Below, in pieces: positions 8,127 to 39,398 of a DNA stretch of 64,000 bases. Source of the DNA: an uncultured Bdellovibrionales bacterium (GTDB taxonomy: Bacteria; Patescibacteriota; Minisyncoccia; Moranbacterales; UBA1568). Every line of letters starts with the position of its first letter. The first letter of the stretch is position 1. A program made the position numbers and the translations under genes. A model generated the notes under the pieces. It had not been told where the DNA came from. It saw only the letters and a program-made list of their open reading frames with translations, and searched no databases. Location: contig CAZGXN010000004.1 in the NCBI GenBank assembly GCA_964530135.1, positions 15,983 to 79,982 on the forward strand, read 5' to 3'.

Positions 8127-9299
8127 ATGGGATTTCTCACTATCTTCAAGCGATTTTTCCGTAATATCAGTTTTTTCCTGGCGCTTGCACTCGCGGCCGG
8201 TATAGTTGGTATTTTCTTCTTTGCTGTGCTCATCCCGAAGCTTTCAACTTGGTCATGGACAGCCCAGTTTGTGTGGCCAGGATCGTCCATAAATGGGCCG
8301 ACTATTATTCAAAGGACAGAACAGGTAGTACTTTCTCAAGAGGAGGGATTGGAACAATTTGTTCCTGCTCCCCGGACCGCTGTTGTGAGTATCAGCGCTC
8401 TTCCCATGGTGCGTTTAGGACGACTGACGGCCGGAAGTGTTGTTCCCCACACTTTTTCTGGTATTTTGGTGACGAATGATGGTCTCGTGGCGACTTATGC
8501 CAATGAGCCACCACAGATTGAGGGGCAGCGCTTTACCGTTTTCTTCGCTGATGGCAATGCGTCCCAAGCCCGTTTTTTAGCGTATGATCCAGTAGTCAAT
8601 GTTGCTTACTTCCGAACAGAACGAGCAGATACGCCCGCATTTCCTTTTGCAAATTCTACAGATATCCGTCAGGGGCGTCGTTTTATGGCATTGGCTGGAG
8701 CTGTGGATTCTGAAGCAGGAAAACTTGTTGCTGGCTACATCAGTGAACGATCACGTACATTTAACCTTTCCGGAAAGACGGTGGCATCGGCTGATGAATG
8801 GGAGGGTGTCTTTTTTCCTGATCGCTCGCTCGGATCTCGTTTTACGGGTGGCGCAGTGGTAGCGATGAACGGAGAGCTCATCGGACTCATCGGTACGCTC
8901 ACACTTGATACAACGGAACAGTCATTTATCCTTCCAGCGAATGTCCTCCGTCAATCACTGCAGCGCGTCATCAGAGGAAGTGCTGTGGTACAGCGTGCGA
9001 GTATTGGTGCATACTATGTTACCTTGACCAAAGAGACAGCGTTAACGCTGGGTACATCTCGGGATCGGGGAGCGCTTATCTTCACGCCCTCGGAGAAGCC
9101 AGGGTTGGCAGTGATTTCAAATTCTCTGGCAGCGCAAGCGGGACTTCGATACGGTGATATCGTAACGGCGGTGAATGGTCGTGAAATTAACCTTGACTGG
9201 CCGCTCTCAGTTGCCCTGTACGAGGTACCGGAAAATGGAGAGGTAATGTTGACGGTGCTCCGGGGTGGAAACGAGCAAACGCTTTCATTGAAGCGCTGA
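8127..9299 (+). CDS. catalytically inactive HtrA-like protein (trypsin fold + PDZ), membrane anchored
   Basis: It aligns to the adjacent HtrA by eye but lacks the catalytic residues. The His motif is replaced by TYANE and GNSGGP is replaced by GGAVVAMNGEL. An N-terminal TM helix is present. Start is ambiguous: ATG 8127 or TTG 8082. Confidence 0.55.
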   Translation: MGFLTIFKRFFRNISFFLALALAAGIVGIFFFAVLIPKLSTWSWTAQFVWPGSSINGPTIIQRTEQVVLSQEEGLEQFVPAPRTAVVSISALPMVRLGRLTAGSVVPHTFSGILVTNDGLVATYANEPPQIEGQRFTVFFADGNASQARFLAYDPVVNVAYFRTERADTPAFPFANSTDIRQGRRFMALAGAVDSEAGKLVAGYISERSRTFNLSGKTVASADEWEGVFFPDRSLGSRFTGGAVVAMNGELIGLIGTLTLDTTEQSFILPANVLRQSLQRVIRGSAVVQRASIGAYYVTLTKETALTLGTSRDRGALIFTPSEKPGLAVISNSLAAQAGLRYGDIVTAVNGREINLDWPLSVALYEVPENGEVMLTVLRGGNEQTLSLKR

Positions 9300-9349
9300 G
9301 CTTAGCATGAATATAACTTTTATTTAAGGCTTAGAAAGGCCATTTTTCT

Positions 9350-9378
9350 TTGACAGAGTGGTACGCATTCCCTACAAT
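9350..9378 (+). promoter_or_regulatory. sigma70 promoter TTGACA-17-TACAAT
   Basis: TTGACA at 9350-9355 and TACAAT at 9373-9378. It sits inside the 5' extension of the long proS ORF, so the ATG at 9401 is the likely real start. Confidence 0.5.
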
Positions 9379-9400
9379 AAAGAAAAAGTATAAGTTTTGT

Positions 9401-10666
9401 ATGCGTCAATCTACTCTCTTCACGAAAACTTCCAAAACAGCTCCTTCGGACGAAGTGAGCCGGAATGCAGCCCTCCTTATTCGCGCGGGATTTGTCCATA
9501 AAGAAATGGCAGGTGTCTATGCGTATCTACCGCTCGGTTTGCGCGTCTTGGAAAAGATCAAATCAATTGTTCGAGATGAAATGAATCAACTGGGCTGTCA
9601 GGAACTCATCATGACGAGTCTCCAGCGTAAGGAGTTATGGGAGAAGACTGATCGTTGGGATGATGCGAATGTCGATGTTTGGTTCAAGTCAAAGTTGAAA
9701 AACGGTACGGAGGTTGGTTTTGGATGGTCACATGAGGAGCAGATTACCGAAATGATGAAAAACCATCTTTCGAGTTACCGTGATGTACCAATAGCGGTGT
9801 ATCAGTTTCAAACGAAACTGCGTAATGAGCTTCGAGCGAAGTCTGGTATCATGCGGGGCCGAGAGTTTGTGATGAAGGATCTCTATTCTTACAATGAAAA
9901 TGAAGTTGCACATCAGCAATTTTACACCGCTGTAACTCAGGCATATCTTCGGGTTTTTGACCGAGTTGGTTTGGGGGAAGTAACATTTCTCACCTTTGCC
10001 TCTGGCGGGGCATTTACGCAATTTAGTCACGAGTTTCAAACCCTCACTGATGCCGGTGAGGATGTCATCTACCTGCATCGAGAGAAAAAAATAGCGATCA
10101 ATGAAGAGGTGCTGAATGATGCCGTGCTTACTCAACTCGGTGTTGAGCGTGATCAGTTAGAGCGAGTCAAAGCAGCTGAGGTAGGTAATATTTTTAGTTT
10201 TGGGAGCACAAAAAGTGAACAACTCGGGTTGTATTTCAAAGACCAGGCGGGAGTCTCAAAACCGGTCATTCTTGGGTCTTACGGTATCGGGATCACTCGT
10301 CTTATGGGAGTGCTCGTTGAAATATTTTCAGATGATCGTGGTCTCGTGTGGCCAAAATCAGTGGCACCATTTCAGGTCCATCTTCTCTCTCTTGGTGCTG
10401 ACGAAAAAGCAGCTGAGGTTTATGCTGCCTTGGTTCGGGAAGGTATCGACGTTCTTTACGACGATCGGGATGCGAGTGTCGGCGAAAAATTTGCTACGGC
10501 TGATCTACTTGGTATTCCCTGCCGAATTGCGATTGGCAAGCGTTCGCTGGAGAGCGGTCTGGCTGAGGTAAAAATGCGGACGGAGGAAACATCACAGATG
10601 GTAGCTTTTCATCAACTAGGTACTCTGATACGAGAACAGTATGCCGACAAAACAGTATCCCGCTAG
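9401..10666 (+). CDS. proS: prolyl-tRNA synthetase (short form, no editing domain)
   Basis: Class II aaRS with a ProRS-like N-terminus (RQSTLFTKTSKTAPSDEVSRNAALLIRAGFV, GVYAYLPLGLRVLEKI). The anticodon-binding domain is C-terminal. Confidence 0.85.
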   Translation: MRQSTLFTKTSKTAPSDEVSRNAALLIRAGFVHKEMAGVYAYLPLGLRVLEKIKSIVRDEMNQLGCQELIMTSLQRKELWEKTDRWDDANVDVWFKSKLKNGTEVGFGWSHEEQITEMMKNHLSSYRDVPIAVYQFQTKLRNELRAKSGIMRGREFVMKDLYSYNENEVAHQQFYTAVTQAYLRVFDRVGLGEVTFLTFASGGAFTQFSHEFQTLTDAGEDVIYLHREKKIAINEEVLNDAVLTQLGVERDQLERVKAAEVGNIFSFGSTKSEQLGLYFKDQAGVSKPVILGSYGIGITRLMGVLVEIFSDDRGLVWPKSVAPFQVHLLSLGADEKAAEVYAALVREGIDVLYDDRDASVGEKFATADLLGIPCRIAIGKRSLESGLAEVKMRTEETSQMVAFHQLGTLIREQYADKTVSR

Positions 10667-30532: not shown

Positions 30533-30563
30533 AGGGGCTATATTGACAAAAAGCCTCTTTTTT
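30533..30563 (+). terminator. candidate intrinsic terminator overlapping the next promoter
   Basis: AGGGGCT (30533-39) pairs with AGCCTCT (30552-58) with one G·U, followed by TTTTT. The 12-nt loop contains the TTGACA of the downstream promoter. Confidence 0.35.
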
Positions 30564-30571
30564 GCTACTAT
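30543..30571 (+). promoter_or_regulatory. sigma70 promoter TTGACA-17-TACTAT
   Basis: TTGACA at 30543-48 and TACTAT at 30566-71. It shares an extended motif with the promoter at 43752. Confidence 0.5.
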
Positions 30572-30601: not shown

Positions 30602-31249
30602 ATGCCGATGACGAATATTTTGGCTCTATTGTGGGAAAAGAAAGGAAGCGTGTTCCTTTTTGGATTTTTTATTGCGGCAGCAGTATTCTTCACTGAAACA
30701 CTTATTTCTCCGCGTTATGCTGTACGCACAGATTTCATGGTGCTCCAGTCATCTGGCTCACAAGATTTCTATACCCTTTTTAAATCGTCCGAATATTTGG
30801 GGAAAATCCTCTCCGAATCAATGTACAGTGAACGGTTCATCAATGCTGTTATTGAAACGGGGAAGGTAAGCGAGCGGGGATTTCTACCAACGGATAAGCG
30901 TGCCCGACTGAAGGCGTGGCGCTCGATGGTGAGTGTAGAAAAGAATATCGAGCTCGGTATACTCTCGGTAACGGTGAAGTCCGATACTGAACGGGAAGCG
31001 AGTAAGACGATGGAAGCGATATCCGATGTACTTATCAATCGCAATCATGAATTCCGTGGAGGTGAAGAGAAGGCGGTTGAGGTTCGCATCCTCTCGGGAC
31101 CGATTGCTGATCGCAATCCGACGCCAAAAGAACTCGTAATACTATCGCTCCTCGGATTTTTTGCGGGCGTGTTTGTTTACGCTATGTGGTTGGCGCTGAA
31201 GATGCTTGATCGAACGGGGACGAAAAGTACTTCGTTCGCTCAGCGATAA
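30602..31249 (+). CDS. Wzz/PCP-like polysaccharide chain-length determinant (small form)
   Basis: N-terminal TM helix, periplasmic segment, C-terminal TM helix (LVILSLLGFFAGVFVYAMWL). This is the Wzz topology. Confidence 0.45.
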   Translation: MPMTNILALLWEKKGSVFLFGFFIAAAVFFTETLISPRYAVRTDFMVLQSSGSQDFYTLFKSSEYLGKILSESMYSERFINAVIETGKVSERGFLPTDKRARLKAWRSMVSVEKNIELGILSVTVKSDTEREASKTMEAISDVLINRNHEFRGGEEKAVEVRILSGPIADRNPTPKELVILSLLGFFAGVFVYAMWLALKMLDRTGTKSTSFAQR

Positions 31250-31418: not shown

Positions 31419-32270
31419 ATGCGAAGAAAAATCTTGCTCGCTGCAAGTATGGCTCTGACATTCCTCGCCGGCTGTTCGTCTCTTCCTCGCGAAAGCGGGT
31501 ACGAAGTGCGGACAGTTCAAGCCGAGGGGCGCCAGGAGCCCTGGCAGAACCGCGCGATTCGTCGCGAAGTGTTCAGTCCCGGTGGAGTGGCGGTCGTCTA
31601 TGTCAGATTGCCGCAACCCATCCCTGACCGGTGGAAGAAGGAATTCGTTGATCCGGCCCGTACCTATGAAGTGCGGGATGGTCAGCGCAAAGTCCGGAAG
31701 CCCCTGTTCCGTGAAGTGTTTCGTGCGATTGCGTTTATGGACGCTGGGGAAACTCAGACCTATGACGCGGTCCTCGATCGGGAGGTGCGAGGCTTCAGTG
31801 TCTTCGTGCCGCTCACGGATGCCGAGCGCATCCGAGGTAAGTCGCTCCTCATTCTGTCTTCGGACGGGAAGTGGGGGATGACAGTCCTCGGCGTGCTTGT
31901 GGAGTTCGAAAAGGGGCTCGCCCCCGATCGGCTTCCGATTGGATTCTTCACGACTCATCCGTCCACTGTGACGCAAGTGATTCGTTTAGATCCGATCGAC
32001 AATGAGCATGCCCGCCTGGCCCTTGATGGTGTGGCGGCAGCGTTTCCGGTGCAGTTTTCGCTTCGGGACAAGAATGGATCATATGTCGGGAAGTCCGACA
32101 TCGCTACCGTCCTCGCCGAGTTTACCTCGGTCGATGGCGTGGCAGATCGGCTGATCTCATGCACGAGCCTCAAGCTCGGTCTGGAGTCAGCATCGGCACT
32201 CCCTATTGTCGCGACACTGTACAGTTATCAAGCTGTGCGTGCCGTGGTGAAGGAGGATTGTTTGAAGTAG
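31419..32270 (+). CDS. lipoprotein, hypothetical (GC-rich island gene A)
   Basis: Signal peptide with lipobox LAGC. SD CAAGGAG lies 8 nt upstream. Composition is GC-rich. No known motif. Confidence 0.5.
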   Translation: MRRKILLAASMALTFLAGCSSLPRESGYEVRTVQAEGRQEPWQNRAIRREVFSPGGVAVVYVRLPQPIPDRWKKEFVDPARTYEVRDGQRKVRKPLFREVFRAIAFMDAGETQTYDAVLDREVRGFSVFVPLTDAERIRGKSLLILSSDGKWGMTVLGVLVEFEKGLAPDRLPIGFFTTHPSTVTQVIRLDPIDNEHARLALDGVAAAFPVQFSLRDKNGSYVGKSDIATVLAEFTSVDGVADRLISCTSLKLGLESASALPIVATLYSYQAVRAVVKEDCLK

Positions 32271-32293
32271 AGTGAAAGAAAGGAGAGCTCACC

Positions 32294-32410
32294 ATGAGCG
32301 ACCCAGTTGTCTTGAAACTGTCCAGGTATCAAGCGTGGGTCGCCTCAATCGACCCACCTTTATTCCTGAGTTCCCTCATTGAATTCATGGCTGAAGGAGG
32401 CCGAACATGA
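32294..32410 (+). CDS. small protein (38 aa), hypothetical, translationally coupled to LysM gene
   Basis: AAGGAG at 32279-84 then ATG 32294. Product is MSDPVVLKLSRYQAWVASIDPPLFLSSLIEFMAEGGRT. Its 3' end carries the GAAGGAGG SD of the next gene and the ATGA stop/start overlap at 32407-32410. Confidence 0.25.
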   Translation: MSDPVVLKLSRYQAWVASIDPPLFLSSLIEFMAEGGRT

Positions 32411-34308
32411 CTGATCGAATCCCTCAAACCGGCACTCCTATCCTGGATGCCAAATCAAAACGTCCTGTCTGGCATTGGATCATTGGAGTCCTACTCCTCT
32501 GTTTCACGGCCTGGATTATCTGGGACATTAACTTCAATCAGGAGAAGCAACCCGTTCACTCAGTATCGCAGTCTGTCTTTGTACCGATTGCTGCTACTCC
32601 GAGTGCTTCGGCACCGGAAACAGTGGCTTCGACGGGTACGCCTGTACCTGTTGCACCGCCCAAGACCTACACAGTTGAACAGGGTGACTGGCTCTCGCTG
32701 GTTTTCCCGAACAATTGGAAGGCGGTGTGCGACCTGAACGCCAAAATCCTGAAGAAGGGTTGCAGCCACATTGTCGCCGGCCAAGAGTTGCAGCTCCCCG
32801 TCGGCGTCGAGCCAACGGAAAAGAGTGCTCGCGCCGCGAAGCCCAAAATGGTTAAGGCCCCCAGGCCCCAAACCACCACGGCTCCGATCGCTGCCACGCC
32901 CAAGACAAATGCTGCAGGCGAAATCCTGTATCGTCGCGTCGGCACAGCACCCTTGAATGGTTGCGGGAAGCGCGACATCGCTGACATCAGCCGCGATGCA
33001 TGGGAAGTGCTCGGTCTGTCGAAGGACGACCAGGCATGGCTCCAGCTGAACGCTGATCTCGCTAACGGTCCACGCATCAACATCACGGCCGCCGAAGGTT
33101 TGGCGAAGCTCGATACTGATACCCGCTTGGAACAAGTTACCTTCTGCCGCAAGGGCACGGTGGTCTCTCGGGGTCCCATGCGTACTGCGTGGGATGCCGA
33201 TCAAGCGGTCTATGGTGAGCGTTTCGTACTCCCGTCGGGCAAGGTGCTCGTCTGGATGCGGAATTGCTTTAACTGGGTCATCCTCCCCGAGGAGAAGAAG
33301 GAGCCACCTGCTCCTCCTCCGCCTCCCGCGGAGTCCCCAGTCGTGCCAACTCCGGCACCACCTACGCCGATACCCGAACCAAGTGCTTCCGTTCCGGTGG
33401 CCGAAGCGCCCAAGGGAATCTGTGACCGATTTGATCCGCACGCGGTCATCGGTCAGGAGTACGAGCCCAGGCATGACGGTGGCGATCGAGCTGATTCGAG
33501 CTATCTGTCGGCCGCACTGTTCTGCACCTGGTACGACGAAAAGCGTCAAGGGACTCACGGCCTCGGTCTGAGTCTGACTGCTTCTACTTGGAGCGGTACC
33601 GTCAATCAGCGTGCAGGAAAGTATCAGGGCAATATGCATCTGGTCGGACCGGCATACGAGTTCATCTCGGATAACGGCTGGGACGCAACCGTCTCAGTCC
33701 CGATGGTGGGCCGTCTCCACGAAAAGTTCAGTCAGGACCAGTACCGTTCACAGCGGGACTTCAGCCTGATCGGTCTTTCGGCCGGCTACAACAACTACGA
33801 ACGCCGCCTCCGCGGTGAAAAGTGGTTTCCCGAAACGCAAGTCTTTGGGACCTGGGCCAAGCCGCTTTCACGCACGGTCGCACATAGCTGGGAAGGTCAG
33901 CCGATTGCCGATACCGCGGAGCTTTCCCGGTTCGACACCTACCTCAATTTGGGGGTGCGTCAATGGCTGTACGAGACCGATGAATCGCTAGTGCTGCCGT
34001 ACGCACAGCTCGGCTATTTCCTCGAGTCCCCAGGATCTGAATCTCTCAGTGTTCGTATGGGCATCTCTGACCCCGCGAGAATCGTGGGTGTCGGAGTGGG
34101 GTTCGATCATGATCTGGAGCGTGGTGGTGATGTTGCGGCCTGGGGCTGGTGGCTGGATGTCGCGAAAGGCATCCAAGTCGGGCGGTCCAAATACCGTAAA
34201 CATCAGATCCTCGTCGATGCAGAGCGTCGCGGGATTACGGTCGAGGAAAACCGTCGAGGCTACATCGAAAGCATCCGCTTCGGTGAACCCAAGCCTGATA
34301 AGCAGTAA
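32407..34308 (+). CDS. LysM domain membrane-anchored protein with Pro-rich linker (island gene B)
   Basis: TM helix at residues 22-40. LysM-like YTVEQGDWLSLVF…IVAGQELQLP. Linker PPAPPPPPAESPVVPTPAPPTPIPEP. Unknown C-terminal domain of about 300 aa. Confidence 0.55.
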   Translation: MTDRIPQTGTPILDAKSKRPVWHWIIGVLLLCFTAWIIWDINFNQEKQPVHSVSQSVFVPIAATPSASAPETVASTGTPVPVAPPKTYTVEQGDWLSLVFPNNWKAVCDLNAKILKKGCSHIVAGQELQLPVGVEPTEKSARAAKPKMVKAPRPQTTTAPIAATPKTNAAGEILYRRVGTAPLNGCGKRDIADISRDAWEVLGLSKDDQAWLQLNADLANGPRINITAAEGLAKLDTDTRLEQVTFCRKGTVVSRGPMRTAWDADQAVYGERFVLPSGKVLVWMRNCFNWVILPEEKKEPPAPPPPPAESPVVPTPAPPTPIPEPSASVPVAEAPKGICDRFDPHAVIGQEYEPRHDGGDRADSSYLSAALFCTWYDEKRQGTHGLGLSLTASTWSGTVNQRAGKYQGNMHLVGPAYEFISDNGWDATVSVPMVGRLHEKFSQDQYRSQRDFSLIGLSAGYNNYERRLRGEKWFPETQVFGTWAKPLSRTVAHSWEGQPIADTAELSRFDTYLNLGVRQWLYETDESLVLPYAQLGYFLESPGSESLSVRMGISDPARIVGVGVGFDHDLERGGDVAAWGWWLDVAKGIQVGRSKYRKHQILVDAERRGITVEENRRGYIESIRFGEPKPDKQ

Positions 34309-34335
34309 GTCCAAAGTCGGGGGATTCTCCCGCAG

Positions 34336-34370
34336 GGCGGCGTCGAGCACATTCGACCCGCCTTTTTCTT
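34336..34370 (+). terminator. intrinsic terminator
   Basis: GGCGG-c-GTCGA gcacat TCGAC-CCGCC hairpin followed by TTTTTCTTTG. Confidence 0.55.
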
Positions 34371-34531
34371 TGCTTACAACTCTACATAATTTTATTGATG
34401 TCTTATCTCGGTTATTTTATTGGGGTTGACCCGGTTTAGAAAAAACTTTAGAAATTTAAGTGTGGCTTTCGAGAAGCTTATCGGTTAATTTTTTATGATT
34501 TTCCTTTTCAGGCAAGCCCTTTCTAGCGGGG

Positions 34532-34560
34532 TTGACAAAAACCAGATTCCCCCCTAGTAT
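34532..34560 (+). promoter_or_regulatory. sigma70 promoter TTGACA-17-TAGTAT
   Basis: TTGACA at 34532-37 and TAGTAT at 34555-60, about 100 nt upstream of island gene C. Confidence 0.5.
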
Positions 34561-34661
34561 GAGGAGTCATCTTTCTGTCCGGCATTTCCCGGCAGGGGAA
34601 TGGCGAACTCACTTCTTTCCCAACCTCTTTCCACTACAGCCTCAAAGGAGGGGCTTGCATC

Positions 34662-35390
34662 ATGAAGACTCGCTTCATTACTTTTTTCTGGGCGTGCGCT
34701 ACGCTCATCACCCTGCCGAGCATTGTGCTCGCTCAGGCCACCAAGACCCTGGCTGTTCAGGGATATACCGACTCGGCTGGCAATACGCTGCCAGGCGGTG
34801 ATACCCGAATGACCGTCACTTCTGACGGCAAGACGACGACCATGCGGCTGGCCAACTTGTACGCTTACGGTGAAGCCGGCACACGGCCGGACGAGAATGG
34901 CAAGCGCGAGGCCTGGTATGGTGCCAATAAGGTGTACTTCGCCGGTGGCACTGTCTATGCCATGAAGCTCGGCAATGATTGGCGCGGCAGCCGTACGGCG
35001 GCCTCAGTCGATCTGAAGGCTGACAATGGGCTGGCTATCTTGGCTCAGGGCAAGATCGGCGACAATGAAGTTACGCTGACCTTCCCGTCGCGCAAGGCAG
35101 CGGCGAATGTCAAGTGGGACTGCCAGCCGCTCAATTACTTGCTCGTCAAAGCGGATGGCAAGCGCGCCTGGCTTGGCCACCCGGGCTGGGCGACGTCGAA
35201 CACAGCGTCAAGTATTGGGGACTTCACCGTTCTCGCGGACAATGACAAGCGGTTTCCGGCCCAAGCCGTCTGCTACGACGCCAATGGCCAAGTGGTCAGG
35301 TTGACGCCGGCGATGCGCGCCGAGCTGGCCAAGGTCATCCAGCCCCCGGCTGGTGCGAAGGAAGCAACTGCCCAGGCCAACGAGCAGTAA
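34662..35390 (+). CDS. secreted protein, hypothetical (island gene C)
   Basis: SD AAGGAGG. Signal peptide MKTRFITFFWACATLITLPSIVLAQA. No known domain. Confidence 0.5.
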   Translation: MKTRFITFFWACATLITLPSIVLAQATKTLAVQGYTDSAGNTLPGGDTRMTVTSDGKTTTMRLANLYAYGEAGTRPDENGKREAWYGANKVYFAGGTVYAMKLGNDWRGSRTAASVDLKADNGLAILAQGKIGDNEVTLTFPSRKAAANVKWDCQPLNYLLVKADGKRAWLGHPGWATSNTASSIGDFTVLADNDKRFPAQAVCYDANGQVVRLTPAMRAELAKVIQPPAGAKEATAQANEQ

Positions 35391-35414
35391 ATCAACTGTC
35401 TTCGCGGCCCACAC

Positions 35415-35461
35415 GGGCCCCCATCGAGCGTAATGCGTTCACCGGGGGCCCGATTTTTTTT
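35415..35461 (+). terminator. intrinsic terminator
   Basis: Perfect 8-bp GGGCCCCC/GGGGGCCC stem followed by T8. Confidence 0.6.
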
Positions 35462-35540
35462 ACGCAATAAGATTTTAAATAGTCGTTCATTAGAGTTTAA
35501 GAATGGCTTGTATAAAGCTTAAAATGTTGTTATCTTTGTG

Positions 35541-35569
35541 TTGACAGAATAGTAAATTTATAGTAGACT
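35541..35569 (+). promoter_or_regulatory. sigma70 promoter TTGACA-17-TAGACT
   Basis: TTGACA at 35541-46. The TATAGT/TAGACT region is 12-17 nt downstream. It is upstream of island gene D. Confidence 0.4.
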
Positions 35570-35652
35570 CGGGAGTCAATTCTGGGCTTGAAAAAGTCCG
35601 GCATTGGCGGATTTTTCACCCGTCCCTTTCCAATCTGAATAAGGAGATTGCC

Positions 35653-36213
35653 ATGCAATCCAAGTCTTTCGCGTTTCCCCATCGCCGTTTCGTCATCTCG
35701 CTTCTCTTTGCCTTTCTCATCGCGGCTGCGTTTGCGCTCGTCTCCAAGACGGCTCAGGCGCAGACCGTCGCCGGCTATCCCACCCAGGGCAGTTCAGCCA
35801 TCACGAGTGTCGTCTCCAAGAGCGCCGGCCAAGCCGAGATCACCATCACCGGCGTCGCGCTGAAGTCGGGCCTGTCCTACTGCCTTATCGGTGTCGGTCA
35901 CGGCAACTGGTACGGCAGTGCTACCCGGGTGCAGCTCGACAAGATCGGCTGCGCCCAGCCCGTCGGCGGCAAGGTCGTTGTCCCGATTCGTCTCGAGTCC
36001 AAGCGCTATGAGGTGAATGGTGCGACAATCGGCTATGTCCCGATCGGGGTGGACGCTGAAGGCAAGATTGCCACTTGGCCACCCAAGCCGACGGGCTCAC
36101 TGCCGTTCGAACGGTCGAATGGCACCAAAGACGACATCGTCGCTGTCCATTGGACGGCCGGCGGTATCGCGCAGCTCGCCACGGCCCAACAGGCCATGAC
36201 CATCAACGACTAG
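35653..36213 (+). CDS. secreted protein, hypothetical (island gene D)
   Basis: SD AAGGAG. Signal peptide …LIAAAFALVSKTAQAQ. No known domain. Confidence 0.5.
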   Translation: MQSKSFAFPHRRFVISLLFAFLIAAAFALVSKTAQAQTVAGYPTQGSSAITSVVSKSAGQAEITITGVALKSGLSYCLIGVGHGNWYGSATRVQLDKIGCAQPVGGKVVVPIRLESKRYEVNGATIGYVPIGVDAEGKIATWPPKPTGSLPFERSNGTKDDIVAVHWTAGGIAQLATAQQAMTIND

Positions 36214-36223
36214 GAGGTCGAAA

Positions 36224-36970
36224 TTGAACAAGCAATTCGCTGCCGCGCTCGTAGCACTTTCTCTGTCGGGGTTCGCCCTGGCTCAGAACTGCACGCGGGA
36301 CATGCCCGATCGTGTCATCCCACAGGCGGGCGATAAGGGTATCGCCATGTTCGCAGAAGAAACCGTCAAGGAAGAATACCGTCCTCCGAAGAAGATGGCC
36401 GAGCGCCAGTTCGACCATGCGGTTGGCATGTGGAACGCTGTGACGGCGTACCCCTGCGATCGTGGCCGGCCAGCAAACATCGAGTTCCAGAGCTTCGAAA
36501 TCGTCCGCCTCGATCCATCGACGGGCAAGCTCATCCCTGAGCTCACACTCCGGTTCGATGGCACGGGCGGCTCATCATTCGATGGTGGTGGCCAATGGCA
36601 CCGCTCGCCCGAGTGGTTCATCTCGGGCCAGCCCGAGCGCCAGCCGACGGTGGCCAGCACCCGGAGTAGCGTCTTCATGGTCGACCTCAAGTCGATCCCG
36701 AAGGCGATCGTCCACATGTGGACGAGTCGTACCCCGGCCATGGCAGGCCAGGTCTATGGCATTCGAGCGAAGGTCCGTGTTACTGGCGATGCACGTCTGC
36801 AGCTCGCCATGGACTATTGGAAGGGTCGCGACAGCGCCTACAACGGCTGGACGCCAGGTTGTACTGGGTCCAACAACTGTGAAGCCTGGCTCGGGGACTG
36901 GTACGGCGACACGGGTGGCAAGTTCGTCACCATCGTCTCGCCGCGCACGCTCCTCGGCAACTCCCATTAG
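36224..36970 (+). CDS. secreted Cys-containing protein, hypothetical (island gene E, paralog 1)
   Basis: TTG start 6 nt after SD AGGAGG and 11 nt after the gene D stop. Signal peptide. It shares conserved blocks with the downstream paralog (VTAYPCDRG; VRVTGDARLQLAMDYW; GWTPGCTGSNNCEAWLGDW). Confidence 0.5.
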   Translation: MNKQFAAALVALSLSGFALAQNCTRDMPDRVIPQAGDKGIAMFAEETVKEEYRPPKKMAERQFDHAVGMWNAVTAYPCDRGRPANIEFQSFEIVRLDPSTGKLIPELTLRFDGTGGSSFDGGGQWHRSPEWFISGQPERQPTVASTRSSVFMVDLKSIPKAIVHMWTSRTPAMAGQVYGIRAKVRVTGDARLQLAMDYWKGRDSAYNGWTPGCTGSNNCEAWLGDWYGDTGGKFVTIVSPRTLLGNSH

Positions 36971-36996
36971 CTAGCGGCAACGCCACACCCCTCAAG

Positions 36997-37039
36997 GCCC
37001 CAATGGATTTCACATCCGGCGGGGCATTTTCTTTTTTTA
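36997..37039 (+). terminator. intrinsic terminator (copy 1 of duplicated module)
   Basis: GCCCCAATGGAT ttcac ATCCGGCGGGGC imperfect hairpin followed by ATTTTCTTTTTTT. Confidence 0.45.
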
Positions 37040-37060
37040 AAGTGAACAGGATTTTAACCA

Positions 37061-37089
37061 TTGACAAAAGAATTATTTTATACTATTAT
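37061..37089 (+). promoter_or_regulatory. sigma70 promoter TTGACA-17-TATTAT
   Basis: TTGACA at 37061-66 and TATTAT at 37084-89, upstream of paralog 2. Confidence 0.5.
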
Positions 37090-37162
37090 CATATGTCATT
37101 TCCAGACACTTCCGTTTGGAAGTGACATCCCTTTTGCCCCTTACCAACAAGGAGTCATCGCC

Positions 37163-37933
37163 ATGCAGGCACACTGGAAACGACATTTTTTCACCCTCTT
37201 TATCGCTTTGGGAATGACCTCAGCTATGGCCCAGTCTCTGTACGAGGTCTGTCCGAGTCCGGTGCCAACTGCCAATCCAACCGTGCCGCAAGGTGTGGCG
37301 GCTGGTGATCCGGCATTCTTCGCGAGTGAAACTATCGCGCCGGAGTATCGGCCGTCGCAACTGATGGCCGACAACGGCTTCAACTACCTCGTCGGCATGC
37401 TGAACATTGTGACCGTGTATCCATGCGATCGCGGCAAAGCGGCGACGGTAGAATTGAAAGCGCTCCGCGTCATCCGCAAGGACCCAAACAGCGGGTATGA
37501 GACAGTCGAACAACTCGTAACATTCGGCAATGGATGGAATCTGCCCAATGGCCTGGTTTACAAGACCTTTTATCGCCAGCCGGGTTGGTTCACGAGTGGT
37601 GAGCCAACGATCCAGCCGACGCTCGTCGGAATCGGCAAACAGATTTATACGGTCAATGTGAAATCTATTCCGAAGGGTATCTACCATGCGTGGACTGCTC
37701 CGCGTGTGGCTGCTGTACCAGGCCATCCGTACTTCGTCGAAGTCGTGGTCCGTGTGACCGGCGACGCGCGCCTGCAGCTCGGTATGGACTATTGGCGTGG
37801 TAGCACCTCAGACTACACTGGTTGGACGCCAGGTTGTACTGGGTCCAACAACTGTCAGGCCTGGCTTTCCAATTGGCTCGGCGACACCCGCGGCAAGTTC
37901 GTCACCTGGCGTGCACCAAGCATGATGTTTTAG
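37163..37933 (+). CDS. secreted Cys-containing protein, hypothetical (island gene E', paralog 2)
   Basis: SD AAGGAG at 37149-54 then ATG 37163. Signal peptide FFTLFIALGMTSAMAQS. Conserved blocks VTVYPCDRGK, VRVTGDARLQLGMDYW and GWTPGCTGSNNCQAWLSNW are shared with paralog 1. A 32-nt stretch is identical between the copies. Confidence 0.5.
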   Translation: MQAHWKRHFFTLFIALGMTSAMAQSLYEVCPSPVPTANPTVPQGVAAGDPAFFASETIAPEYRPSQLMADNGFNYLVGMLNIVTVYPCDRGKAATVELKALRVIRKDPNSGYETVEQLVTFGNGWNLPNGLVYKTFYRQPGWFTSGEPTIQPTLVGIGKQIYTVNVKSIPKGIYHAWTAPRVAAVPGHPYFVEVVVRVTGDARLQLGMDYWRGSTSDYTGWTPGCTGSNNCQAWLSNWLGDTRGKFVTWRAPSMMF

Positions 37934-37955
37934 CGGCAACGCCGCACCTCTCAAG

Positions 37956-37999
37956 GCCCCAATGGATTCATTTTCCGCTGGGGCTTCTTCTTTTCTATT
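37956..37999. terminator. intrinsic terminator (copy 2), probably bidirectional
   Basis: GCCCCAATGG…CCGCTGGGGC hairpin followed by TTCTTCTTTTCT. It overlaps the stop of the convergent minus-strand gene at 37998. Confidence 0.4.
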
Positions 38000-39398
38000 A
38001 AAAGTGATCGCGGAGCTCGCTTGGAAGCGATGTGTGATAGAGTGACAGGAATCCGCCAATGACGACGGCAAGTATCCATTGGACGGGTGTATTTTTGAAG
38101 ACATTATCAGAGAAACTCGCGATTATCAGGGTGAGCAAAAGAAGGAGCAAAAGTGTGGCCATATTTTTCAGACTGTGACTGGGAGTGAGGCGGCGTACAT
38201 TGATCACAGGAAAGGCCAAAGTCAGGAGGTAGAACACAAAGACGGACAATCCCACGATACCTCCATCGACATAGAATTTCACAAAGTCATTGTGTGATTC
38301 ATTGGAGCCAAATCGTCCACCTCGCAGTTGTTCGGCAGAAACGCGGAAAGTATCTACACCGCTTCCGAGCCACACTCTTTCCTCGAGATTGGTCTTGAGT
38401 ATCATGTCATGCCAGAGGTTTTGTCGCCAGACGATTGAAGAGTCGGGAGTCGGATGGAATGCCTCGCTGACGCGCTCATTCACGGCGGGGATAAATGTCA
38501 TGAGAACAATCGGGAGGAGGATGAGTGGCAAGAGGAGGAAGCGATAGCGCCAGATGGCAATGAGTGTCGCGAAAACAAAGAACGCAATCCAAGCAATGCG
38601 GGCATATGTGAGGATAAGCGTGATGAGTACGAGTCCAAGATAGAGACTTGTTAAGAGGCGGGCCTGGTCTTTTCGGGCATAGACTAGGAGGTAGATACTG
38701 GCGACTGCAGCGACAGTGAACAGGTAGAGACTGAAGACATTTGGGTGGCTAAAAGTGCCAAAGATACGGATGGCTGAAACATTTTCATCAACGAGACCAA
38801 TCCCAAAGAGGAACTGATAGAGTCCGAAGACTATCGGAAGGAGGCTGGATATGAAAATTGCTCTGAGCAAGGTGCGATAGTCGCGATAGCGTTCAACTGA
38901 AGCGTATGCGATGAAGCCGATACTGAAGAGATCAAAGATCCGGAGTACTTCTTGGGCGGATGAGGTTGGATCGATAGAGTAGGTGAGTGTGCTGAGTCCC
39001 CAGAAAATGAGGAGGCCGTACGGTAAGAGGAGTGGGTAACGACCCAGTGGTCGCAGATGAAAGAGAACAAAGAGCATACCCAGGCCCGCAATGCCGAGAC
39101 CGAGGATCTGGGAAAGGGAAACGACACGATCGAAAAGTGAGAAAGTGATGAATTGCGAGGAGTAGTCGAGTGACATGCGGATGACAATGAGCGTAGCGAG
39201 CAGGAAGAGGGGATTGTGGAAAAGACCGATGACCGCTGCGACACTCAGCAAAGCAATAACCGGCAGGAAAAGCGAGACGCCGACCAGAGCGGCGCAAAAC
39301 ATCAGGACAAAGAAAACAGTACCTGCAATGAGATAGGTGCGAGGGTCAGTCCAGAATGATTGTTCGGGGATGGTAGGGATTACTCGGGTTGTTTCCAT
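37998..39398 (-). CDS. O-antigen ligase/polymerase-like membrane protein (Wzy_C family)
   Basis: 466 aa with more than 10 TM helices and a periplasmic loop carrying SHNDFVKFYVDGGIVGL, the H-N-x(n)-E/D-x-G pattern of WaaL/Wzy_C. Confidence 0.55.
   Translation of the reverse strand: METTRVIPTIPEQSFWTDPRTYLIAGTVFFVLMFCAALVGVSLFLPVIALLSVAAVIGLFHNPLFLLATLIVIRMSLDYSSQFITFSLFDRVVSLSQILGLGIAGLGMLFVLFHLRPLGRYPLLLPYGLLIFWGLSTLTYSIDPTSSAQEVLRIFDLFSIGFIAYASVERYRDYRTLLRAIFISSLLPIVFGLYQFLFGIGLVDENVSAIRIFGTFSHPNVFSLYLFTVAAVASIYLLVYARKDQARLLTSLYLGLVLITLILTYARIAWIAFFVFATLIAIWRYRFLLLPLILLPIVLMTFIPAVNERVSEAFHPTPDSSIVWRQNLWHDMILKTNLEERVWLGSGVDTFRVSAEQLRGGRFGSNESHNDFVKFYVDGGIVGLSVFVFYLLTLAFPVINVRRLTPSHSLKNMATLLLLLLLTLIIASFSDNVFKNTPVQWILAVVIGGFLSLYHTSLPSELRDHF

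Follow-up and report, generated by a model that had tools for sequence, protein, structure and literature searches.

The window analysed here is a stretch of 64,000 nucleotides (nt) from the genome of a member of Candidatus Moranbacteria, within the Candidate Phyla Radiation (CPR), taken from contig CAZGXN010000004.1, positions 15,983 to 79,982 of the forward strand. It was compared with 20-kb pieces of related genomes, whose loci are labelled L001 to L028; the suffixes _A and _B denote the A-type and B-type genes of these loci. The subject of the study is a tandem pair of genes, copy A and copy B, together with the terminators that follow them (Table 1). A preliminary description of this DNA had proposed two paralogs of about 250 amino acids (aa) here, and both open reading frames are present. 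Copy A has a TTG start codon positioned 5 nt downstream of AGGAGG, and copy B has an ATG start codon 8 nt downstream of AAGGAG. A full-length BLASTP alignment of the products contains 115 identities in 254 positions (45%, E 1e-74), and thus the similarity is genuine and not spurious. The E-value and the existence of 32 close homologs of about 250 aa in public data indicate that a chance resemblance of A and B is excluded. None of these homologs carries a Pfam domain, and all are named "hypothetical protein" at best.

The conserved blocks VT(A/V)YPCDRG, VRVTGDARLQL(A/G)MDYW, and GWTPGCTGSNNC(E/Q)AWL, listed in the preliminary description, were located in both products. The contrast between a diverged N-terminal half and a conserved C-terminal part, noted there as well, is borne out by the amino-acid identities of 30-codon blocks, which are 20–50% in the N-terminal region and 57–73% over residues 166–224 of copy A. 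The longest identical DNA run of the two genes, described previously as 32 nt long, is indeed identical and has a length of 33 nt (TGGACGCCAGGTTGTACTGGGTCCAACAACTGT). The second-longest run, of 19 nt (CTCAAGGCCCCAATGGATT), is in the 3' untranslated regions (UTRs).

Over the first two thirds of the genes, the synonymous sites of copies A and B have reached saturation, with a proportion of synonymous differences (pS) of 0.6–0.87 per 30-codon block. The synonymous divergence is much lower (pS 0.38) at residues 195–224 of copy A. Identical residues are encoded by the same codon in 12 of 37 cases within the first 100 alignment columns and in 29 of 40 cases within the last 74. A neighbour-joining tree of the 160 N-terminal aligned codons, computed for the genes of the window and nine genomes, splits cleanly into an A clade (copy A, L006_A, L001_A, L009_A, L010_A, L004, and L012) and a B clade (copy B, L006_B, L001_B, L003, L008, L009_B, L010_B, and L011_2). 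The ribosome recycling factors (RRF) of these genomes are 66–86% identical to that of the window. Because the two clades span genomes with such divergent RRF sequences, the tree indicates an ancient duplication, older than a deep split in the Moranbacteria lineage. Gene pairs are present in L001, L002, L006, L009, L010, and L026. Among the single-copy genomes, L004, L012, and L028 kept the A-type gene, and L003 and L008 the B-type gene. In L028, the A-type gene (72–779) is followed directly by the Wzy gene, with no B copy between them. Locus L011 contains a gene of a deep-branching third type beside a B-type gene (8338–9117 and 9143–10003).

Several of the related records (the metagenome-assembled genomes L006, L008–L012, and L014) are labelled "uncultured Bdellovibrionales". 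Their gene order, from SerRS, RRF, and RseP through the cluster described below to Wzy, is the same as in records labelled as Candidatus Moranbacteria or Moraniibacteriota, and their RRF are 62–86% identical to that of the window. The Bdellovibrionales label is probably a placeholder and looks wrong.

The 33-nt run is part of a segment in which copy A has B-type sequence. The closest A orthologs, L026_A (80% amino-acid identity) and L028_A (73%), read DSEPLPWAEDCRGMNHCEAW where copy A has DSAYNGWTPGCTGSNNCEAW, the invariant sequence of the B clade. The cysteine loop of these orthologs is the divergent PLPWAEDCRGMNHC, which appears to have been overwritten in copy A. In a DNA alignment of six sequences, copy A is 73–90% identical to its orthologs on either side of the segment, whereas in 30-nt windows around it the identity is 33–50% to the orthologs and 87–97% to copy B. 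The sites that distinguish the A orthologs from copy B are of B type from 36839 to 36875, with flanking sites of A type at 36834 and 36881. Over the 48 nt between 36834 and 36881, there are 7 differences between copy A and copy B, 11 between copy A and other B genes, and 25–26 between copy A and the A orthologs. In the two flanks it has 48 and 24 differences to copy B, in contrast to 22–24 and 10–16 to the A orthologs. In permutations of the informative sites, none of 100,000 reached the observed run. The segment is therefore nearer to the paralog and its flanks are nearer to the orthologs, as in gene conversion between paralogs, and the alignments indicate that it is a short conversion tract of about 40 nt, copied from B into A in the lineage of the window. 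The resident copy B is the likely donor, since the tract is closest to it. Residual identity left from the duplication was considered as a source of the run, and is ruled out by the mosaic pattern and the permutation result.

The loop affected by the conversion is variable in the A clade, with the sequence PEGRPWKPACEGMANC in L001_A and an insertion of eight residues in L006_A, and is fixed in close B-clade orthologs. The tufA and tufB genes of enterobacteria are bacterial paralogs that evolve in concert by short-tract gene conversion. Copies A and B resemble them in that a patch was overwritten by the resident paralog, leaving a mosaic nearer to the paralog than to the orthologs. Unlike in tufA and tufB, the tract is only about 40 nt long, lies in otherwise saturated paralogs, and exchanges a lineage-variable surface loop instead of homogenising the whole gene.

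The ratios of nonsynonymous to synonymous divergence (dN/dS, Nei-Gojobori method) between orthologs are 0.21–0.34 for A and 0.07–0.15 for B. They exceed 1 in no region, and the maxima are in the signal peptide and the N-terminal linker. The ratios indicate that both copies are under purifying selection, with B slow and constrained and A evolving two to three times faster. The suggestion of the preliminary description that the N-terminal part is diversifying does not hold, given the ancient duplication, the synonymous saturation, and the dN/dS values below 1; because these values apply to every region, diversifying selection is unsupported at the level of regions. The A-clade cysteine loop remains the sole variable element that may fit the idea of a specificity loop, and it is too short for a test of selection. 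A recent duplication, of which the identical stretch and the similar UTRs would be remnants in a young copy with a quickly diversified N-terminus, has in its favour the 33 identical nucleotides and the 19-nt run in the UTRs. It is refuted by the saturation of synonymous sites outside the tract, by the separate A and B clades common to distant genomes, by the tract flanks nearer to orthologs than to the paralog, and by dN/dS below 1 everywhere, and its probability is negligible.

Both copies are followed by a GC-rich predicted hairpin with a U-tract (UUUUCUUUUUUU and UUCUUCUUUUCU) directly downstream of it, the arrangement of an intrinsic terminator. Hairpins of the form GGCCCCAA(T/C)GGAT ... 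ATCC(G/A)GCGGGGC are present downstream of copy A, copy B, L001_A, L006_A, L006_B, L026_A, and L028_A. In L026_B and L027_B the hairpin is GGTCTCAAAGAAT ... GAGACC, changed on both sides of the stem, and L001_B has a different terminator. An RNAalifold consensus of nine orthologous and paralogous copies contains 14 base pairs, six of which have compensated changes, including CG to UA and GC to AU. Because homologous hairpins with compensatory changes follow A-type and B-type genes in several genomes, the comparison indicates that the duplicated unit took in the terminator. This agrees with the earlier view of a tandem duplication that included the terminator and of duplicated 3' UTRs, each forming a hairpin. 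Conservation of the ancestral terminator appears sufficient to explain the similarity of the UTRs, and gene conversion is unneeded as its source, given that L006_B has the same hairpin and L026_B and L027_B a compensated version of it.

A second, small stem-loop of 3–5 base pairs is positioned between the stop codon and the terminator hairpin of each copy. In L001_A it reads CAGCAATGCTG instead of CGGCAACGCCG, with the pairing preserved. The putative promoter of copy B has a -35 box, TTGACAAAA, that is conserved in L001, L006, and L026, and the stem-loop at the start of the predicted transcript is kept in the same three genomes with variable loop length. Rfam searches of the UTRs and the intergenic region, including the 5' stem-loop of copy B, gave no match, and the only Rfam matches within the window are three tRNAs. 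The gene of the 186-aa protein, which precedes copy A, has orthologs directly upstream of the A-type genes of L001 and L006. The 186-aa protein and the neighbouring 242-aa exported protein are unrelated to the family of A and B according to hhalign comparisons with the family profile (probability below 1%). A scan for TTGACA-17-TAnnnT identified 10 sites, compared with 5.0 expected from shuffled sequences. Near-consensus sites are located just upstream of the Wzz-like gene (30543–30571), the 242-aa gene (34532–34560), the 186-aa gene and copy A (35541–35569), and copy B (37061–37089), each next to a gene of the cluster.

Table 1 Genes, conversion tract, and putative regulatory elements of the A/B locus. 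Coordinates refer to the window unless another locus is named.
Feature	Position	Strand	Description
Wzz-like gene	30602-31249	+	215 aa, membrane segments at both ends; TIGR01006 (polysaccharide chain-length determinant) E 3.5e-7, below cut-off
Block of exported-protein genes rich in GC at third codon positions	window 31419-37933; L001 4300-10768; L003 4964-9237; L004 5942-10747		
LysM-barrel gene	32407-34308; predicted barrel part 33409-34305	+	633 aa, three positions upstream of copy A
Sigma-70-like promoter before 186-aa gene and copy A	35541-35569	+	TTGACA-17-TAGACT, 10/12 consensus matches; putative promoter
186-aa exported protein gene	35653-36213	+	10-nt gap to copy A; apparently co-transcribed
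Copy A	36224-36970	+	248-aa A-clade paralog, putative signal peptide ending ALA before Q, four Cys; identical to public protein P0020
Gene-conversion tract (B-type sequence)	36839-36880	+	Holds 33-nt run 36848-36880; encodes YNGWTPGCTGSNNC
Small stem-loop right after copy A stop	36974-36983	+	Kept in orthologs; 2 compensated cases at one pair
Copy A terminator	36997-37039	+	Hairpin GGCCCC..ATGGAT/ATCC..GGGGC then U-tract; predicted -19.1 kcal/mol
Copy B sigma-70-like promoter	37061-37089	+	TTGACA-17-TATTAT, 11/12 consensus matches
Copy B 5' UTR stem-loop	37095-37126	+	GTCA-TTTCCAGAC...GTTTGGAAG-TGAC, at predicted transcript start; stem kept in 4 genomes
Copy B	37163-37933	+	256-aa B-clade paralog, putative signal peptide ending AMA before Q, four Cys; AlphaFold2 model pLDDT 87.1, pTM 0.84
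Donor segment of the 33-nt identical run in copy B	37823-37855	+	
Small stem-loop right after copy B stop	37933-37945	+	GCGGC-AAC-GCCGC
Copy B terminator	37954-37998	+	Hairpin and U-rich tract; predicted -25.9 kcal/mol, z -3.65; abuts 3' end of convergent Wzy_C gene

The products of both genes start with putative signal peptides, MNKQFAAALVALSLSGFALA and MQAHWKRHFFTLFIALGMTSAMA, each followed by Q, which were identified by eye rather than with a predictor. In the AlphaFold2 model of copy B, residues 4–22 form an isolated helix. The putative N-terminal signal peptides, and the fact that distant relatives are lipoproteins or cargo of the type IX secretion system (T9SS), support the export of A and B, as had been proposed earlier. 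The four cysteines C30, C88, C225, and C231 (B numbering), described as conserved from the two copies, are present in 30, 32, 33, and 33 of 33 close homologs, respectively. C30 and C88 co-occur in the close family. Both cysteines of the C-terminal pair are present in 55 sequences, a single one in 1, and neither in 18. Because they co-occur, the C-x5-C pair, located in a surface loop, probably forms a disulfide.

The predicted structure of copy B is all-beta, with 11 strands and the confidence scores given in Table 1 (pLDDT, predicted local distance difference test; pTM, predicted template modelling score). The C-x5-C loop is placed between the two most conserved strands. The model indicates that A and B are beta-sandwich proteins of about 230 residues; the exported family to which they belong is unannotated. 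The structure prediction called for in the preliminary description thus gave a confident all-beta model, and a Foldseek search with it against the PDB identified no known fold at E <= 0.001. Chains with the concanavalin A (ConA) fold were matched only at E 0.06–0.25 with TM-scores of 0.16–0.18, too weakly to assign the proteins to the ConA-like lectin/glucanase fold. Confident fold matches came only from BFVD, with domains of three proteins predicted to be phage tail proteins. Residues R127, H164, R169, Q193, D197, and N218 (A numbering) are nearly invariant across phyla.

Searches of Pfam, NCBIfam, PHROGs, and PADLOC assigned neither A nor B to a family. In Pfam, copy A had no match and copy B only a sub-threshold one to PadR (E 0.23). 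No Pfam family, including those of carbohydrate-binding modules (CBMs), was matched by more than one of 74 family members, and sequence searches of the PDB with two profiles gave only a chance-level match to CFAP68 (E 0.014). A HMMER search of 1.84 billion representative sequences identified 109 clusters (50% identity) at E <= 0.001, of which 73 have E <= 1e-10. Genome matches outside Moranbacteria are from Bacteroidales, Lentimicrobium, Flavobacteriales, and Terriglobia. A Bacteroidales lipoprotein of 230 aa shares the full-length architecture. In multi-domain relatives the module is fused to PKD, fn3, Kre9-like Ig, CHAP, InlB B-repeats, DUF4214, or T9SS sorting tails, and in one relative it is joined to a GT4 enzyme with a membrane segment. 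Because relatives are lipoproteins, T9SS cargo, or fusions with PKD, fn3, or CHAP, these architectures indicate that the module is consistently extracellular. None of the Moranbacteria cluster genes accompanies the domain outside Moranbacteria. A phage origin was considered; no relative was identified by tblastn among 50,697 phage records or by a pattern scan in IMG/VR.

The matching phage tail proteins are A0A8S5NCN9 ("SH3 domain protein", 920 aa), A0A8S5TWL1 ("Tail protein", 839 aa), and A0A8S5T3V6 (755 aa). They were matched with a Foldseek probability of 1.0, E-values of 2e-5 to 2e-4, and query-normalised TM-scores of 0.33–0.51 over 172–217 columns. The matched regions are extracellular beta-sandwich modules in proteins that contact cell surfaces. 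The tail proteins are 12% identical to A and B in sequence, and are large multi-domain proteins in which the matching domain is uncharacterised. The models point to a likeness of fold, with homology not established. Copies A and B also share features with ConA-like lectins and with CBM beta-sandwiches such as CBM_4_9 (PF02018), namely the extracellular all-beta sandwich and, within the family, the co-occurrence with PKD, fn3, and T9SS tails. The conserved Trp, His, Arg, Gln, and Asp of the family are typical of sugar-binding sites. Unlike in true CBM_4_9 modules, the weak matches to this profile in the distant relatives P0064 and P0114 fall outside the homologous region.

The order of genes at the locus is SerRS, a BNR protein, RRF, RseP, a Wzz-like protein, a lipoprotein, a protein of about 600 aa, one of about 240 aa, sometimes one of about 185 aa, and one or two genes of the A/B family, followed by a convergent Wzy_C gene and the genes of a methyltransferase and a GT4 glycosyltransferase. 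This order is syntenic in related genomes. The Wzz-like gene opens the cluster, and the Wzy_C gene (37998–39398) is positioned at its opposite end. The GC content at third codon positions (GC3) of the six exported-protein genes is 0.63–0.78, compared with 0.38–0.57 in the flanks. The contrast is kept in three distant syntenic loci, with values up to 0.91 in L001. Synteny and composition indicate that the A/B pair is located within a conserved, GC3-rich envelope cluster of Moranbacteria. Recent horizontal transfer of a GC-rich island was rejected as an explanation, since genomes of saturated divergence share both the synteny and the high GC3 of the block. Public gene calls at L001 7548–8390, L003 8572–9198 and 9422–9772, and L004 9012–9581 were made on the minus strand; a conserved homolog of the 242-aa exported protein (25–53% identity) is encoded opposite them, on the plus strand. 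The strand of the deposited calls is probably wrong.

It is possible, with a probability of roughly 0.4–0.5, that A and B are surface proteins that bind a ligand, most likely a carbohydrate. The ancestral gene and its intrinsic terminator were duplicated together, and both paralogs have been kept by purifying selection since before this Moranbacteria clade diversified. Copy B would be transcribed from its own consensus promoter, acquired later, and copy A would be read together with the upstream 186-aa gene, whose promoter it shares. In the lineage of the window, gene conversion over about 40 nt pasted the loop of B into A and produced the 33-nt identity. After export by the Sec pathway, the proteins would bind ligands at the cell surface as components of a lineage-specific envelope cluster that adjoins Wzy-dependent glycan genes. 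The ligand would most likely be a carbohydrate, either a product of the neighbouring Wzy-dependent pathway or one found on a partner cell, and the cysteine loop beside the DYW and NNC-AW motifs would help to set specificity. Several results weigh against this interpretation. Neither Pfam and PDB searches nor Foldseek linked the proteins significantly, by sequence or by fold, to a characterised lectin, CBM, or adhesin; the signal peptides were identified by eye only; the direction and timing of the conversion are based on five comparison sequences; and the genomic context of the Bacteroidota and Terriglobia relatives, with uncharacterised or housekeeping neighbours such as gidA and PEP mutase, is uninformative. 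The nearly invariant R, H, R, Q, D, and N residues are as compatible with an active site as with a binding site.

The last point leads to the possibility, unlikely on present evidence, that A and B are extracellular enzymes, such as glycan hydrolases, lyases, or modifying enzymes on a beta-jelly-roll scaffold, acting on the Wzy/GT4 surface polymer or the host cell wall. The fusion of one relative to a GT4 glycosyltransferase and of another to a CHAP peptidase domain, as well as the position of the pair among glycan-biosynthesis genes, agree with such an activity. However, no profile or fold match links the proteins to any glycoside hydrolase, polysaccharide lyase, or carbohydrate esterase family, the wide family lacks an invariant pair of acidic residues, and most fusions are to typical surface-display modules. 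The near-consensus promoters, strong terminators, and 5' stem-loop, together with the GC3 of the cluster, which is high across genomes and may mark high expression, and the strict synteny with the lipoprotein and barrel genes, could instead point to abundant structural parts of the envelope with no ligand specificity of their own, either coat- or S-layer-like or accessory subunits of the LysM-barrel protein described below. Such a role is decidedly unlikely, as unrelated phyla without the cluster also have the domain, as one module of multi-domain surface proteins, and single-copy genomes do without either paralog.

A role as secreted effectors or toxins, directed against competitors of this episymbiotic lineage or against its bacterial host, would agree with A and B being small, exported, and probably disulfide-stabilised. 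The resemblance of the fold to phage tail domains, which contact bacterial surfaces, and the loop that is variable in one paralog also fit this role. It is nevertheless very improbable, given the strong purifying selection, above all on B, and the stable, syntenic position on the chromosome. Searches of Pfam and PADLOC identified neither an immunity-like gene nor a toxin domain nor a family linked to defence or conflict, and PDB sequence and Foldseek searches gave no significant similarity of A and B to solved toxins.

The 633-aa protein encoded three positions upstream of copy A is made up of a membrane segment at the N-terminus, a region of LysM type, linkers rich in proline, and a domain at the C-terminus. 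Homologs of it either contain PF01476 or bear the name of LysM proteins, and the family is confined to Moranbacteria. The AlphaFold2 model of the C-terminal 299 residues (pLDDT 90.9) has 12 long antiparallel strands, many of which alternate hydrophobic and polar faces. Foldseek matched it to the 12-stranded outer-membrane barrels of BrkA, AIDA-I, EspP, NalP, invasin, and intimin (E 5e-8 to 1e-4). The combination of a LysM region with a predicted 12-stranded barrel is shared with intimin and invasin, which are inverse autotransporters of type Ve. Unlike them, the protein has no C-terminal passenger, as the barrel is followed only by a helix of 23 residues and about 25 further residues, and it has no match to a Pfam barrel family. 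The few CPR members with a described envelope are monoderm (PMC8871954). A literature search found nothing on Moranbacteria surface proteins or outer membranes. As a long shot, the cluster could encode an outer-membrane-type surface apparatus in a CPR bacterium, with the predicted barrel inserted either in an outer layer so far unrecognised or in the membrane of the host. Copies A and B, encoded separately from the barrel, would then supply its tip or passenger subunits; these would be exchangeable and bind to the surface of the host, and swaps of the loop by conversion would retune their specificity. The lipoprotein, the LysM-barrel protein, and four exported beta-sandwich proteins, A and B among them, would make up such an apparatus.

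The A/B family represents an unannotated extracellular domain family that extends across CPR, Bacteroidota, and Acidobacteriota. Its confidently predicted fold without a solved counterpart makes it a reasonable target for structural and glycan-binding studies. Copies A and B appear to be a clean case in which conversion over a very short tract reset a variable surface loop of one ancient paralog from the other. Provided that the cluster is real and expressed, it would bear on the form of the CPR envelope and on the way in which bacteria with small genomes contact other cells.

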